Source: Escherichia coli
Lineage (GTDB): Bacteria; Pseudomonadota; Gammaproteobacteria; Enterobacterales; Enterobacteriaceae
DNA: 11,358 nt
NCBI RefSeq assembly: GCF_003334355.1
Contig: NZ_QOWP01000054.1
Strand: one strand, 5' to 3'
Shown here: piece by piece, positions 7,140 to 11,277 of the stretch
Layout of the letters: each line of letters begins with the position of its first letter
Numbering within the stretch: the stretch's first letter is position 1
The notes under the pieces: model-generated
What the model saw: only the letters and a program-made list of their open reading frames with translations
Told to the model about the DNA's origin: nothing
The model's database searches: none
Made by a program: the position numbers and the translations under genes

Positions 7140-7168
7140 ATATTAATGGCAGTGCATGGTGATGTCAA
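7140..7168 (-). promoter_or_regulatory. Sigma70 promoter of the tRNA-Asn at 7046..7121
   Basis: On the minus strand: TTGACA (7168..7163), 17-bp spacer, TAATAT (7145..7140), then a GC-rich discriminator GCGCCCCG. An A/T-rich UP-like tract lies upstream. Predicted leader is about 12 nt. Confidence 0.75.
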
Positions 7169-7241
7169 AGGGTGAAATGCATTTTTTTGTTTGTTTGCTG
7201 TCAATTTCAACAAAGTGATGAGATTTCAATCTTATTGGTAA

Positions 7242-7258
7242 TGAACCATCGTGGTGCA
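7242..7258. promoter_or_regulatory. Candidate NtrC enhancer site for nac
   Basis: TGAACC-atcgt-GGTGCA against the NtrC consensus TGCACC-N5-GGTGCA (one mismatch), centred about 130 bp upstream of the sigma54 -24 element. Confidence 0.6.
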
Positions 7259-7375
7259 TACCCTCCTTTTATAGGGCAGGGGAACGCGACTGCTGGTGAA
7301 AAGAGCCAATGACGAATCTATCATAATCTCTTATTTGACAGTTGGTTAGCTTGTACATCAACGCCAAAATAAAAC

Positions 7376-7391
7376 TGGCAAGCATCTTGCA
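7376..7391 (+). promoter_or_regulatory. Sigma54 (RpoN) -24/-12 promoter of nac
   Basis: TGGCAAGCATCTTGCA fits TGGCAC-N5-TTGCA with correctly spaced GG and GC, about 55 bp upstream of the nac ATG. Confidence 0.75.
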
Positions 7392-7446
7392 GTCTGGTTG
7401 TAAGTAATGGCGGCACTTGGGCCGATTCTCAAAAACCGGAGGCAAC

Positions 7447-8364
7447 ATGAACTTCAGACGCCTGAAATACTTCGTAAAAATTGTAGATATTGGTAGCCTG
7501 ACTCAGGCTGCTGAAGTATTGCATATCGCACAACCAGCGCTCAGCCAGCAGGTTGCCACACTGGAAGGTGAGTTAAATCAACAACTTTTGATTCGCACAA
7601 AACGGGGCGTTACGCCAACAGACGCCGGAAAAATTCTCTATACCCATGCGCGGGCCATTTTACGTCAGTGTGAGCAGGCCCAACTGGCGGTGCATAACGT
7701 TGGTCAGTCATTATCGGGGCAAGTCTCGATTGGCTTTGCGCCAGGAACCGCTGCGTCATCCATCACCATGCCCTTATTACAGGCGGTTCGCGCTGAATTC
7801 CCGGAGGTCGTTATCTATCTTCATGAAAATAGTGGTGCAGTGCTTAACGAAAAACTGATAAATCACCAACTCGATATGGCGGTGATTTATGAGCATTCCC
7901 CTGTGGCTGGTGTATCCAGTCAGGCTTTACTGAAAGAAGATCTTTTCCTGGTAGGGACTCAAGATTGTCCGGGGCAAAGCGTTGATGTTAATGCTATTGC
8001 GCAAATGAACCTCTTTCTTCCCAGTGATTACAGTGCTGTTAGACTTCGTGTTGATGAGGCTTTTTCCCTACGGCGACTCACGGCAAAAGTCATTGGTGAA
8101 ATTGAGTCTATTGCCACGCTTACCGCAGCGATTGCCAGCGGCATGGGCGTTGCAGTATTACCCGAATCGGCCGCGCGTTCGTTATGTGGCGCAGTAAACG
8201 GGTGGATGTCACGCATTACCACACCTTCCATGAGTCTCTCTTTGTCATTAAATTTACCCGCCAGAGCGAACTTATCACCACAGGCACAGGCAGTGAAAGA
8301 GTTGTTAATGTCAGTGATGAGTTCTCCAGTGATGGAAAAAAGGCAGTGGCAATTGGTGAGCTAA
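7447..8364 (+). CDS. nac: Nitrogen assimilation control protein Nac (LysR-type transcriptional regulator)
   Basis: 305 aa from ATG 7447 (MNFRRLKYFVKIVDIGSLTQAAEVLHIAQPALSQQV...) with an N-terminal LysR helix-turn-helix. CCGGAGG Shine-Dalgarno 4-5 nt upstream. The track's start at 7417 adds 10 residues with no ribosome-binding site. Confidence 0.92.
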   Translation: MNFRRLKYFVKIVDIGSLTQAAEVLHIAQPALSQQVATLEGELNQQLLIRTKRGVTPTDAGKILYTHARAILRQCEQAQLAVHNVGQSLSGQVSIGFAPGTAASSITMPLLQAVRAEFPEVVIYLHENSGAVLNEKLINHQLDMAVIYEHSPVAGVSSQALLKEDLFLVGTQDCPGQSVDVNAIAQMNLFLPSDYSAVRLRVDEAFSLRRLTAKVIGEIESIATLTAAIASGMGVAVLPESAARSLCGAVNGWMSRITTPSMSLSLSLNLPARANLSPQAQAVKELLMSVMSSPVMEKRQWQLVS

Positions 8365-8465
8365 ACGTTATATCGGGATGGAATAAGATGCGGGTTTTTA
8401 TTATTTGTTATGCCGGGCATTAGACTTTAACAATAACGGAAAATCTGAACTGCCCGGAGTTTACC

Positions 8466-9453: not shown

Positions 9454-9529
9454 TGGCTCCTCTGACTGGACTCGAACCAGTGACATACGGATTAACAGTC
9501 CGCCGTTCTACCGACTGAACTACAGAGGA
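9454..9529 (-). tRNA. asnU: tRNA-Asn (anticodon GUU)
   Basis: Identical 76-nt sequence to the other two copies, on the minus strand. The asnU name is by synteny, between cbl and yeeO. Confidence 0.97.
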
Positions 9530-9545
9530 ATCGTTGTTGAGGCAC

Positions 9546-9573
9546 ATCTTAACGGCGAAAAATCTTTTGTCAA
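9546..9573 (-). promoter_or_regulatory. Probable sigma70 promoter of the tRNA-Asn at 9454..9529
   Basis: On the minus strand: TTGACA (9573..9568), 16-bp spacer, TAAGAT (9551..9546), discriminator GTGCCTC. Same geometry as the other two tRNA promoters, with a weaker -10. Confidence 0.55.
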
Positions 9574-9689
9574 ACCCGATTTTTAAATTCCCCAACTGTT
9601 TGCCGTTTCTATCAACAGTTTGTTGCATTTGCAGACAATTTGTTGGCGAAAATCTTTGCAGCTTTGCTGATTCTCCCTCATTATTTGAA

Positions 9690-11177
9690 ATGTGGTTTCA
9701 CTTTCTGCAATTAAGGTCGGCTTTGAATATCTCCTCTGCTTTACGCCAGGTTGTTCACGGCACTCGCTGGCACGCTAAACGCAAGAGCTACAAAGTGTTG
9801 TTCTGGCGCGAGATAACCCCGCTTGCTGTTCCTATCTTCATGGAGAATGCCTGTGTCCTGTTGATGGGGGTTCTGAGCACTTTTCTGGTCAGCTGGCTGG
9901 GAAAAGATGCGATGGCCGGCGTGGGATTGGCGGACAGCTTCAATATGGTCATTATGGCTTTTTTTGCTGCTATCGATCTTGGTACTACTGTCGTTGTGGC
10001 ATTTAGTCTCGGTAAGCGGGATCGACGACGAGCGAGGGTGGCGACGCGGCAGTCATTGGTGATCATGACGTTGTTTGCCGTACTGTTGGCAACGCTTATT
10101 CATCATTTTGGCGAACAAATTATTGATTTCGTCGCGGGTGATGCCACGACAGAAGTTAAAGCACTGGCGTTGACTTATCTGGAGCTGACGGTACTCAGTT
10201 ATCCAGCAGCTGCCATCACTCTTATTGGTAGCGGGGCACTTCGTGGTGCAGGGAATACGAAAATACCGCTATTGATTAACGGTAGCCTGAATATTCTTAA
10301 TATTATTATTAGCGGCATATTGATTTACGGCCTTTTCTCCTGGCCGGGACTGGGATTTGTCGGGGCAGGGCTGGGTTTAACCATTTCTCGTTATATTGGC
10401 GCAGTTGCAATTTTGTGGGTGCTGGCGATTGGTTTTAATCCTGCGCTAAGGATTTCGTTAAAGAGCTATTTTAAACCGCTGAATTTTAGCATTATCTGGG
10501 AAGTCATGGGGATTGGTATTCCCGCGAGTGTCGAATCAGTGTTATTTACCAGTGGTCGGTTATTAACCCAAATGTTCGTTGCCGGGATGGGGACCAGTGT
10601 TATTGCCGGAAATTTTATCGCGTTTTCAATTGCGGCTCTTATCAACTTACCCGGAAGTGCGCTCGGCTCTGCTTCTACGATCATTACAGGCCGAAGGTTG
10701 GGGGTAGGGCAGATAGCGCAAGCAGAGATTCAGTTGCGGCATGTGTTCTGGCTTTCCACTCTTGGATTAACGGCCATCGCCTGGCTAACGGCTCCCTTTG
10801 CCGGGGTTATGGCATCGTTTTACACCCAGGATCCACAGGTTAAACATGTCGTTGTGATTCTGATTTGGCTAAATGCTTTATTTATGCCTATTTGGTCCGC
10901 CTCATGGGTGCTACCCGCTGGATTTAAGGGGGCTCGTGACGCCCGTTACGCTATGTGGGTTTCTATGTTGAGCATGTGGGGTTGCCGGGTTGTCGTCGGT
11001 TATGTGCTGGGCATCATGCTTGGCTGGGGTGTGGTTGGTGTCTGGATGGGAATGTTTGCCGACTGGGCTGTGCGGGCCGTGCTGTTTTACTGGCGAATGG
11101 TTACTGGACGTTGGCTATGGAAATACCCTCGATCCGAGCCGCAAAAGTGTGAGAAAAAGCCAGTTGTGTCGGAATAA
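9690..11177 (+). CDS. yeeO: MATE-family efflux transporter YeeO (reported FMN/FAD/dipeptide exporter)
   Basis: Polytopic membrane protein with MATE-like features. The longest ORF (9534, 547 aa) would start inside the promoter and flank of the antisense tRNA-Asn. ATG 9690 gives 495 aa; a TTG at 9723 has the better Shine-Dalgarno (AAGG, 6-nt spacer). The start is uncertain; stop TAA at 11175..11177. Confidence 0.85.
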   Translation: MWFHFLQLRSALNISSALRQVVHGTRWHAKRKSYKVLFWREITPLAVPIFMENACVLLMGVLSTFLVSWLGKDAMAGVGLADSFNMVIMAFFAAIDLGTTVVVAFSLGKRDRRRARVATRQSLVIMTLFAVLLATLIHHFGEQIIDFVAGDATTEVKALALTYLELTVLSYPAAAITLIGSGALRGAGNTKIPLLINGSLNILNIIISGILIYGLFSWPGLGFVGAGLGLTISRYIGAVAILWVLAIGFNPALRISLKSYFKPLNFSIIWEVMGIGIPASVESVLFTSGRLLTQMFVAGMGTSVIAGNFIAFSIAALINLPGSALGSASTIITGRRLGVGQIAQAEIQLRHVFWLSTLGLTAIAWLTAPFAGVMASFYTQDPQVKHVVVILIWLNALFMPIWSASWVLPAGFKGARDARYAMWVSMLSMWGCRVVVGYVLGIMLGWGVVGVWMGMFADWAVRAVLFYWRMVTGRWLWKYPRSEPQKCEKKPVVSE

Positions 11178-11230
11178 ACGACAAAATGCAGATTATTTCA
11201 GCAAACGATTTCAAATTTAAAAAACAGGCT

Positions 11231-11259
11231 TTGACATTGTGGGTGGGCATCGCTAATAT
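11231..11259 (+). promoter_or_regulatory. Sigma70 promoter of the tRNA-Asn at 11278..11353
   Basis: Consensus TTGACA (11231..11236), 17-bp spacer, TAATAT (11254..11259), discriminator TCGCCTCG, and an upstream A-tract (AAATTTAAAAAACAGG) resembling an UP element. Confidence 0.8.
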
Positions 11260-11277
11260 TCGCCTCGTTCTCACGAT

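Follow-up and report, generated by a model that had tools for sequence, protein, structure and literature searches.

The tRNA-Asn promoters described here have their closest known counterparts in tyrT, in the rRNA operons and in the Asn genes of Salmonella. In tyrT, a single promoter with the discriminator GCGCCCC(G) gives a transcript with a short leader, which RNase P cuts, and the unit ends in an intrinsic terminator; a FIS site lies near -71, and a non-consensus -35 is combined with a 16-bp spacer. For the rrn promoters, the roles of the UP element, FIS, the discriminator, ppGpp and the initiating NTP have been summarised (PMC4696680), and reporters have revealed differences in strength and FIS/H-NS dependence among the promoters of the seven operons (Maeda et al, 2015, PMC4696680). 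In Salmonella, rrn P1 reads TTGTCA-16-TATAAT-GCGCCACC-A and a tRNA-Asp promoter TAATAT-TCGCCTCG, and dRNA-seq of strain SL1344 placed primary TSSs 11, 11, 11 and 9 nt upstream of four tRNA-Asn orthologues (PMC3963941, Table S4). An Asn leader of 6-8 nt has also been tabulated from earlier work, data not shown (Mohanty et al, 2020), and models of tRNA supply have had to take the four Asn copies as equal (PMC1183518).

The window, i.e., the whole stretch of 11,358 nt of Escherichia coli DNA that was analysed, matched E. coli PSS-12 at 100% and had the gene order cobUST-ldtA-asnV-nac-cbl-asnU-yeeO-asnW, in agreement with the order asnV-nac-cbl-asnU-yeeO-asnW in K-12. It contains three identical tRNA-Asn(GUU) genes, detected by both ARAGORN and Rfam and named after the K-12 annotation, and their promoters are identical to those of K-12 over 90 nt. 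The fourth copy, asnT, lies outside the window and has a promoter of the canonical form, TTGACA-17-TAATAT-TCGCCCCG. The genes and core promoter elements in the window, the hexamers being located by consensus and pattern scans, are:

7046..7121, minus strand, asnV, tRNA-Asn(GUU)
7133..7139, minus strand, asnV discriminator GCGCCCC, 7/7 G+C, of the form GCGCC(C/T)C kept across genera
7140..7145, minus strand, asnV -10 TAATAT
7163..7168, minus strand, asnV -35 TTGACA, with a 17-bp spacer at 7146-7162
9454..9529, minus strand, asnU, tRNA-Asn(GUU)
9539-9545, minus strand, asnU discriminator GTGCCTC, 5/7 G+C, directly 3' of the -10
9546..9551, minus strand, asnU -10 TAAGAT
9552-9567, minus strand, asnU spacer AAAGATTTTTCGCCGT, 16 bp, unusually conserved in sequence
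9568..9573, minus strand, asnU -35 TTGACA
11231..11236, plus strand, asnW -35 TTGACA, with a 17-bp spacer at 11237-11253
11254..11259, plus strand, asnW -10 TAATAT
from 11260, plus strand, asnW discriminator TCGCCTC, the seven bases after the -10, 5/7 G+C
11278..11353, plus strand, asnW, tRNA-Asn(GUU)

In a consensus scan of the window, the three asn promoters were exactly the top-ranked sites, with 10/12 matches each, and the pattern TTGACA-N15-19-TAADAT was found three times against 0.04 expected (0/200 shuffles reached three). The scans confirmed as exact the geometry given in the initial annotation, TTGACA-17-TAATAT at asnV and asnW and TTGACA-16-TAAGAT at asnU. All three genes have upstream, on the correct strand, hexamers close to TTGACA/TATAAT at a distance of 16 or 17 bp, inside the 16-18 bp of sigma-70 promoters. 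The G+C-rich discriminators claimed for all copies, typical of the stable-RNA class, were likewise present, that of asnU being the least typical. The GCGCC-type motif is common to Asn promoters, rrn P1 and tRNA-Asp, and the Salmonella promoter strings for the latter two place the Asn promoters in that class. With rrn P1 (rrnB P1 type) they share the G+C-rich GCGCC discriminator, a -10 near consensus, a product that is a stable RNA and, putatively, A/T (UP) and FIS regions further upstream, and asnU additionally shares the 16-bp spacer. In contrast, rrn P1 has an imperfect -35 (TTGTCA), a start 9 nt past the -10, a paired P2 and several FIS sites; at the Asn genes there is one promoter only, with a perfect -35 and in most cases a 17-bp spacer, and a single FIS candidate has been found so far. 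The single promoter, the discriminator, the short RNase P-cut leader and the intrinsic terminator are common to the Asn genes, tyrT and other monocistronic E. coli tRNA promoters; the Asn genes differ from tyrT in having four dispersed identical copies and a consensus -35. Two further promoter-like sites, 7210-7181 and 11221-11192 (both minus strand, 9/12), lie in A/T-rich upstream tracts and their hexamers are not conserved, so they were dismissed as chance matches.

Between the -10 and the tRNA lie 18 nt in asnV, 16 nt in asnU and 18 nt in asnW, and the hexamer positions imply that the leader measures 11-12 nt in asnV and asnW and 9-10 nt in asnU. The leader of about 10-12 nt proposed initially is therefore a little too long in the case of asnU. 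Based on homology to the Salmonella copies with mapped TSSs, the predicted leaders are:

7122..7132, minus strand, asnV leader GTTCACACGAT, 11 nt, predicted +1 G at 7132, from homology to a Salmonella primary TSS
9530..9539, minus strand, asnU leader (C)AACAACGAT, 9-10 nt, predicted +1 A at 9538 or C at 9539, the Salmonella asnU-type leader being mapped at 9 nt
up to 11277, plus strand, asnW leader GTTCTCACGAT, 11 nt, predicted +1 G at 11267, from the mapped TSS of the homologous Salmonella copy

The Salmonella leaders belong to promoter strings homologous to asnT, asnV, asnW and asnU, and their primary TSSs lie 7-8 nt past the -10 (PMC3963941, Table S4), inside the 6-9 nt expected of a sigma-70 start. 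Three of these direct orthologues have TTGACA, a 17-bp spacer, TA(T/C/A)TAT, a (G/T)CGCC(C/T)C discriminator, +1 G and an 11-nt leader (PMC3963941, Table S4). The fourth resembles asnU in its TTGACA, 16-bp spacer (AAAATTTTTCCGCCGC) and 9-nt leader, and differs from it in having TAATAT instead of TAAGAT and 15 rather than 16 nt between -10 and tRNA. The mapped start base is C in this asnU-type copy versus G in the other three. Hence, the Salmonella mapping fits the leaders predicted here, those of asnV and asnW at 11 nt and that of asnU at 9-10 nt. On the K-12 genome (NC_000913.3), the predicted starts correspond to 2062249 (asnV), 2059841/2 (asnU) and 2044538 (asnT) on the plus strand and to 2058113 (asnW) on the minus strand. 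The leaders of asnT and asnV are identical and the asnW leader deviates at one base; asnU alone has a leader that stands clearly apart. A leader of 6-8 nt (Mohanty et al, 2020) would put the start 11-13 nt past the -10; this value comes from a secondary tabulation, misfits both the hexamer positions and the Salmonella mapping, and was not adopted. A literature search with RegulonDB-style asn promoter names returned unrelated matches only, and the text of an MPRA preprint does not mention tRNA promoters.

Conservation was assessed on 123 orthologous or paralogous tRNA-Asn promoters from 80 other Enterobacteriaceae species. TTGACA was kept in 123/123, all promoters retained the elements in a fixed register, and positions 1, 2, 5 and 6 of the -10 hexamer were invariant. 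In 114 of the promoters a 17-bp spacer was combined with exactly 18 nt between -10 and tRNA, despite differing spacer sequences. The remaining nine, from Escherichia, Citrobacter and Kosakonia, were of the asnU type, in which a 16-bp spacer and TAAGAT were without exception (9/9) accompanied by a distance of 15-16 nt to the tRNA, and only in this class was the spacer sequence itself conserved. Within E. coli, the 61-nt asnU promoter was present at 95% identity or higher in 5,419 of 5,426 complete genomes, and four variants sampled across the ranking had changes in leader, spacer or upstream bases only, with TAAGAT invariant. asnV and asnW are 97% identical across 105 nt, a stretch that includes the -10 hexamer at one end and the tRNA at the other, whereas the sequence that asnU has in common with them is limited to the tRNA and 5 nt on each side. 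The likeness of the asn promoters is partly due to shared ancestry; their spacers are unrelated in sequence, however, and TTGACA at a fixed distance is thus not merely a copied block. Judged by its conservation, the asnU promoter is an old, paralogue-specific variant and not a decayed copy, and its real distinction is a linked, conserved package of the 16-bp spacer, TAAGAT, a predicted leader shorter by ~2 nt and a different predicted start base.

Upstream of the -35, each promoter carries A/T tracts within -60 to -41 and a G-N13-C 15-mer, A/T in its core, centred at -72 (~-71 in asnU):

7182..7211, minus strand, asnV upstream region, in which an A-tract covers ~-56 to -50, in the zone of UP elements, and the putative FIS-like 15-mer GTTGAAATTGACAGC (7197-7211) has its centre at -72, assigned from conservation
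9579..9616, minus strand, asnU upstream region with the A/T tract AATTTAAAAAT at ~-51 to -41 and the putative FIS-like 15-mer GTTGATAGAAACGGC (9602-9616, centre ~-71)
11188..11224, plus strand, asnW upstream region with the putative FIS-like 15-mer GCAGATTATTTCAGC (11188-11202, centre -72) and the A/T tract GATTTCAAATTTAAAAAA at ~-60 to -43

The 15-mer lies inside a block, ttTGctGaatTTgTCAGCAAAC, that was conserved in 84 promoters when the asn upstream regions were compared. Compared with the FIS consensus and the -71 position of FIS activation, we infer from motif, position and conservation that FIS may bind, and the A/T tracts may serve as UP elements, at the asn promoters.

As in a monocistronic tRNA unit, each gene stands alone, with a promoter upstream and an intrinsic terminator downstream. 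The terminators of asnV and asnU lie 6-13 nt past the gene:

7012..7039, minus strand, Rho-independent terminator hairpin after asnV, between the convergent ldtA and asnV, with a 12-pair stem and a T tail
9424..9440, minus strand, terminator hairpin after asnU, between the convergent cbl and asnU, found by terminator scan

The asnV terminator is flanked by A and T runs and is therefore probably bidirectional. That of asnW falls beyond the end of the window, where strain PSS-12 has hairpins with T runs. The window scan found no terminator-like site between yeeO and asnW, so read-through into asnW is possible. A plus-strand terminator-like hairpin over the asnU promoter (9531-9558) was considered a chance match, as eight such sites were found against 5.5 expected.

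Taken together, each tRNA-Asn gene very probably forms its own one-gene unit, transcribed from a sigma-70 promoter that belongs to the stable-RNA type of enterobacteria, with asnU as a distinct, selectively maintained variant. The core layout would be a TTGACA -35, a -10 of the form TA(A/N)(T/N)AT and a (G/T)CGCC(C/T)C discriminator; upstream of these would lie an A/T tract where UP elements are found and a conserved FIS-like site with its centre at ~-72. Transcription would initiate at a G eight nt past the -10, the 11-nt leader (GTTCACACGAT or GTTCTCACGAT) would be removed by RNase P, and the intrinsic terminator just 3' of the gene would end each unit. The analogy to rrn P1 and tyrT predicts for this layout an expression that is high, coupled to growth rate and sensitive to ppGpp/DksA. 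The asnU variant, with its 16-bp spacer, TAAGAT, non-GCGCC discriminator, 9-10-nt leader and non-G start, would be maintained by selection; it is fixed in E. coli and also present in Citrobacter and Kosakonia. The consensus -35, G+C-rich discriminator, short leader and conserved register bear out the stable-RNA type read from the sequence initially, here as sigma-70 promoters. In this respect the asn promoters are known biology, of the textbook stable-RNA type, and the result matters little beyond annotation: for three tRNA-Asn genes of E. coli the likely promoters, starts and leaders are fixed and their class membership is shown.

The initial annotation had singled out asnU for one weaker -10. 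On this reading asnU is simply a weak copy, in which TAAGAT and the 16-bp spacer lower transcription and identical tRNAs are produced in unequal amounts. A 16-bp spacer is indeed sub-optimal for sigma-70 in model promoters, and asnU lacks both the GCGCC-type discriminator and the 105-nt block of asnV and asnW. In addition, deletion of asnT and of asnV had different effects on growth, which indicates that the copies are not equivalent (bioRxiv 10.1101/2022.06.16.495782). However, a weaker -10 is not supported: TAATAT and TAAGAT each match TATAAT at 4/6 positions, and all three promoters score 10/12. The G sits where natural Asn promoters vary freely, at positions 3 and 4 of the hexamer (TAATAT, TAACAT, TACTAT, TAGTAT, TATTAT), and TAAGAT also serves a tRNA-Pro with a mapped primary TSS in Salmonella (PMC3963941, Table S4). 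The nearest-neighbour melting energy of the bubble was estimated at -17.9 kcal/mol for asnU versus -18.1 kcal/mol for asnW, with a wider spread among the canonical copies, and an asnU promoter that is harder to melt was rejected on the basis of this estimate. Spacers of 16 bp also occur in the rrn P1 promoters, which no other promoter of the cell exceeds in strength, and a variant kept across genera and fixed in E. coli does not show the pattern of a decaying promoter. We therefore regard the weak copy as a possible but rather doubtful explanation. The 16-bp spacer is a more meaningful difference than the -10 G, and spacer length and discriminator are the more likely causes of any difference in activity. 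Unequal expression of the asn copies, as initially suggested, is plausible, and asnU may be expected to differ modestly from its sisters in strength or regulatory kinetics, although the direction and size of this difference cannot be derived from sequence alone.

asnU might also be regulated differently without being weaker, a suggestion that we make tentatively: its spacer, non-GCGCC discriminator and A/C start could alter open-complex lifetime, initiating-NTP sensing or ppGpp/DksA sensing, so that supply would be spread over two regulatory classes. Consistent with this, the three linked traits occur together in 9/9 asnU-type promoters and also in Salmonella with TAATAT, where C was mapped as the start base, and spacer sequence is conserved in the asnU-type class only. 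The base two nt past the -10, which matters for contact with sigma region 1.2, nevertheless varies within the class (T, A, G, C), and the conservation could have another cause. A precedent exists in the heterogeneous control of the seven rrn operons (PMC4696680). There, redundant, near-identical stable-RNA genes are unequally expressed, as reporters demonstrated for rrn; for the asn copies this is a hypothesis. That the asnU type represents a second regulatory class of tRNA-Asn gene, maintained since ancient times and differing in its response to FIS, ppGpp/DksA, growth rate or the pools of initiating NTP, seems unlikely; if true, enterobacteria would deliberately divide their supply of a single tRNA over two modes of control. 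Alternatively, the conservation could be due to the divergent yeeO. The region upstream of asnU is also that upstream of yeeO, conservation extends well past the core promoter (e.g., AAATGCAACAAACTGT and CTGCAAAG), and the region is still attached to yeeO where the segment is inverted in Citrobacter. The peculiarities of asnU would then be without effect on tRNA output and kept since the DNA serves yeeO as promoter, operator or 5' region. Yet the window scan gave no good plus-strand promoter match over the asnU core, and a yeeO element would not easily account for the 16-bp spacing or the shorter leader, which makes this explanation improbable. A yeeO coding constraint was rejected, since stop codons interrupt the 547-aa yeeO frame that runs across the asnU promoter both in Citrobacter portucalensis and in Kosakonia.

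With asnU as a conserved variant and not a decayed copy, the four identical asn genes offer a clean natural test system in which to study the effects of spacer length and discriminator sequence on stable-RNA promoters and to see if redundant tRNA genes have the same regulation. In late stationary phase, the ppGpp0/wild-type ratio of the Salmonella Asn genes was 0.77, i.e., no derepression was seen, and the total-read counts were near-identical across the four copies (PMC3963941, Table S4). The latter suggests multi-mapped reads of stable mature tRNA, and the counts are no measure of promoter activity.

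The stretch 6900-11357 was 100% identical to E. coli PSS-12, with matches of 95-99% in thousands of further E. coli genomes, and the gene order was cobU-cobS-cobT-ldtA-asnV-nac-cbl-asnU-yeeO-asnW in both PSS-12 and the K-12 MG1655 annotation. The three tRNA-Asn(GUU) genes were identical to one another (ARAGORN and Rfam). Since the 90 nt 5' of each are also identical in K-12, knowledge of K-12 is directly applicable.

Genes around the three tRNA-Asn copies.
7046-7121, minus strand: asnV, tRNA-Asn(GUU)
7447-8364, plus strand: nac
8466-9416, plus strand: cbl
9454-9529, minus strand: asnU, tRNA-Asn(GUU)
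ending at 11177, plus strand: yeeO
11278-11353, plus strand: asnW, tRNA-Asn(GUU)

A consensus scan returned as joint top sites, at 10/12 each, TTGACA-17-TAATAT for asnV (7168-7140, minus strand) and asnW (11231-11259, plus strand) and TTGACA-16-TAAGAT for asnU (9573-9546, minus strand). The pattern TTGACA-N15-19-TAADAT occurred three times in the window against 0.04 expected, each time correctly placed and oriented; the promoter sequences and spacings of the initial annotation were correct to the base. The seven bases 3' of the -10 were GCGCCCC, GTGCCTC and TCGCCTC in asnV, asnU and asnW, with 18, 16 and 18 nt, respectively, from the -10 to the mature 5' end. A fourth copy, asnT, is located beyond the window (38633-38708 in the PSS-12 locus L001); its promoter reads TTGACA-17-TAATAT-TCGCCCCG and its leader is that of asnV. 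The resemblance among copies is partly due to paralogy: asnV and asnW were 97% identical across a 105-nt block spanning -10 and tRNA, and asnU had in common with them only the tRNA and 5 nt on each side. Since the spacer sequences are unrelated, each copy has independently retained its perfect -35 at a fixed distance.

Every tRNA-Asn upstream region was extracted from 80 loci of other Enterobacteriaceae species, anchored on Cbl. TTGACA was present in all 123 promoters, and 114 had a 17-bp spacer with exactly 18 nt from -10 to tRNA. In this class the -10 was TAATAT (77), TAACAT (12), TACTAT (11), TAGTAT (8) or TATTAT (6), with positions 1, 2, 5 and 6 invariant and positions 3 and 4 variable, and was followed almost always by (G/T)CGCC(C/T)CGTTCACACGAT. 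Spacer sequence was free to differ and spacer length was constant. Such conservation is what purifying selection on a working sigma-70 promoter leaves behind.

The other nine promoters were of asnU type, always combining a 16-bp spacer AAA.(A/T)TTTTTCGCCG(T/C), TAAGAT and a -10-to-tRNA distance of 15-16 nt (9/9). They came from five Escherichia species, three species of the Citrobacter freundii complex and Kosakonia oryziphila. Within E. coli, the 61-nt asnU promoter was found at 95% identity or more in 5,419 of 5,426 complete genomes. Four variants, drawn from top to bottom of the ranking, had changes in leader, spacer or upstream positions alone, and all four kept both hexamers and the spacer length. 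The unchanged hexamers and spacer length, in a class found across genera, argue for an old asnU form that has been maintained, and the one small addition of this analysis is the asnU promoter as a conserved variant class. The cross-genus distribution and near-universal presence in E. coli rule out a recent lesion.

The conservation could also derive from yeeO, in whose upstream region the asnU promoter sits. K-12 RefSeq yeeO (b1985, 547 aa) starts at a TTG at 9534, at a distance of 5 nt from the 5' end of asnU, and its frame would overlap the entire asnU promoter on the opposite strand (extension 9534-9689, plus strand); PGAP starts the gene at 9690 (495 aa). Coding constraint is excluded by in-frame stops in the extension in Citrobacter portucalensis (L015) and Kosakonia (L050); a shared yeeO regulatory element is a possible cause. 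In Kosakonia a stop also directly follows the Met of the 495-aa form, and these stops together place the real yeeO start probably farther downstream, possibly at a TTG near 9729.

Primary start sites have been published for the four tRNA-Asn genes of Salmonella SL1344 by dRNA-seq, with sequences from -50 to +1 (PMC3963941, Table S4). Three copies have TTGACA-17-TATTAT/TACTAT/TAATAT, then GCGCCTC/GCGCCCC/TCGCCCC, a +1 G and 11 nt to the tRNA (PMC3963941), with upstream strings that clearly resemble those of asnT, asnV and asnW. The fourth, TTGACA-AAAATTTTTCCGCCGC(16)-TAATAT-ACGACC with +1 C and a 9-nt leader (PMC3963941), is by its sequence of the asnU type. By homology, the predicted starts are G 7132 for asnV and G 11267 for asnW (11-nt leaders), and A 9538 or C 9539 for asnU (9-10 nt). 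The leader of about 10-12 nt initially proposed is thus close for asnV and asnW and slightly long for asnU. The promoter interpretation itself is supported by the consensus -35, the fixed register across relatives and the mapped Salmonella starts. Mohanty et al. 2020 (PMC7049720, Table 1) list Asn leaders of 6-8 nt, citing earlier work with no data shown; the work cited appears to be the 2005 promoter analysis by Pettersson et al. Such leaders would put the start 11-13 nt past the -10, in conflict with the 11 nt from geometry and the Salmonella starts. Under the rule that leaders of at least 8 nt block aminoacylation, the low chargeable fraction of tRNA-Asn, 25% (PMC7049720), would fit an 11-nt leader better.

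The suggestion of a weaker -10 at asnU was not supported, as TAATAT and TAAGAT each match the consensus at 4/6 and the G occupies one of the two hexamer positions at which Asn promoters vary in nature. A mapped Salmonella tRNA-Pro promoter also uses TAAGAT (PMC3963941, Table S4). Nearest-neighbour energies of the -11 to +2 bubble were -17.9 (asnU), -18.1 (asnW), -19.2 (asnT) and -20.6 kcal/mol (asnV). As a difference, the 16-bp spacer counts for more than the -10 G. This length is sub-optimal in model promoters; it is also the spacing of rrn P1, and at rrnB P1 it contributes to regulation and to open complexes that are short-lived, not to a low maximal output. With this spacer, no GCGCC motif and a start base that is probably A or C, not G, a modest difference of asnU in strength or regulation, in either direction, is likely. 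Deletions of asnT and asnV had differing growth effects (bioRxiv 10.1101/2022.06.16.495782), an indirect hint that copies are non-equivalent. Models of tRNA supply constrained the four copies to equality because tRNA abundance cannot separate them (PMC1183518).

Salmonella rrn P1 reads TTGTCA-16-TATAAT-GCGCCACC-A, and a Salmonella tRNA-Asp promoter, TAATAT-TCGCCTCG, equals the asnW module exactly (both PMC3963941, Table S4). These likenesses place the Asn promoters in the enterobacterial stable-RNA class, whose elements are an UP element, a G+C-rich discriminator, FIS, ppGpp/DksA and initiating-NTP sensing (PMC4696680); overall, this is standard, already understood biology of the best-studied bacterium. 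Upstream, 84 asnV/asnW-type promoters had in common a block ttTGctGaatTTgTCAGCAAAC holding a 15-mer bounded by G and C, with palindromic arms and an A/T core.

FIS-like 15-mers.
7197-7211, asnV: GTTGAAATTGACAGC, centre -72
9602-9616, asnU: GTTGATAGAAACGGC, centre about -71
11188-11202, asnW: GCAGATTATTTCAGC, centre -72

A/T tracts lay 3' of the 15-mers, within -60 to -41. As candidate FIS sites, the 15-mers agree in sequence with the consensus and in position with site I (-71) of rrnB P1 and tyrT.

Intrinsic terminators were located 3' of asnV (7012-7039) and asnU (9424-9440). The former hairpin lies between convergent ldtA and asnV and is bordered on each side by runs of A and T, and the latter lies between convergent cbl and asnU; both are probably shared bidirectional terminators. 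No terminator-like site was found between the yeeO stop (11177) and asnW (11178-11277, plus strand), so asnW may receive yeeO read-through besides transcripts from its own promoter. Divergent from the asnV promoter, TGGCAAGCATCTTGCA at 7376-7391 (plus strand), 56 nt 5' of the nac ATG (7447), fits the sigma-54 -24/-12 consensus TGGCAC-N5-TTGCA and is the predicted, expected NtrC-dependent nac promoter.

Rearrangements between tRNA-Asn copies, which are known island-integration sites, were observed in relatives. In three cbl loci of the Citrobacter freundii complex (L015, L020, L040; about 4990-7400), the segment with the asnU promoter, yeeO and the asnW promoter, flanked by inverted tRNA-Asn copies, was inverted relative to E. 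coli: yeeO lay on the minus strand, an asnW-type promoter copy adjoined cbl and the asnU-type copy lay beyond yeeO. The arrangement suggests that the identical inverted tRNA genes have recombined. In E. albertii (L021) and C. koseri (L009), about 4990-6150, the tRNA-Asn just after cbl carried an asnT-type promoter and was followed by tRNA-Ser(CGA), serU; the asnU-to-asnT interval is therefore absent, including yeeO, yeeN, amn, shiA, yeeJ and others, a pattern consistent with deletion or insertion when direct tRNA-Asn copies recombine. The left end of the window, 5' of cobU (positions 1-3600), reads as a degraded insertion region; it corresponds in PSS-12 to L001 9400-16600, a patch of IS3, IS2 and IS4 transposase fragments with one TonB-dependent receptor and one cobalamin-synthesis gene, both truncated. 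At the other end, the last base of the window (11358) is C (trailer AATTC, as after asnV and asnU) and L001 24459 is T; the source strain may diverge from PSS-12 downstream of asnW, a known island-integration site.
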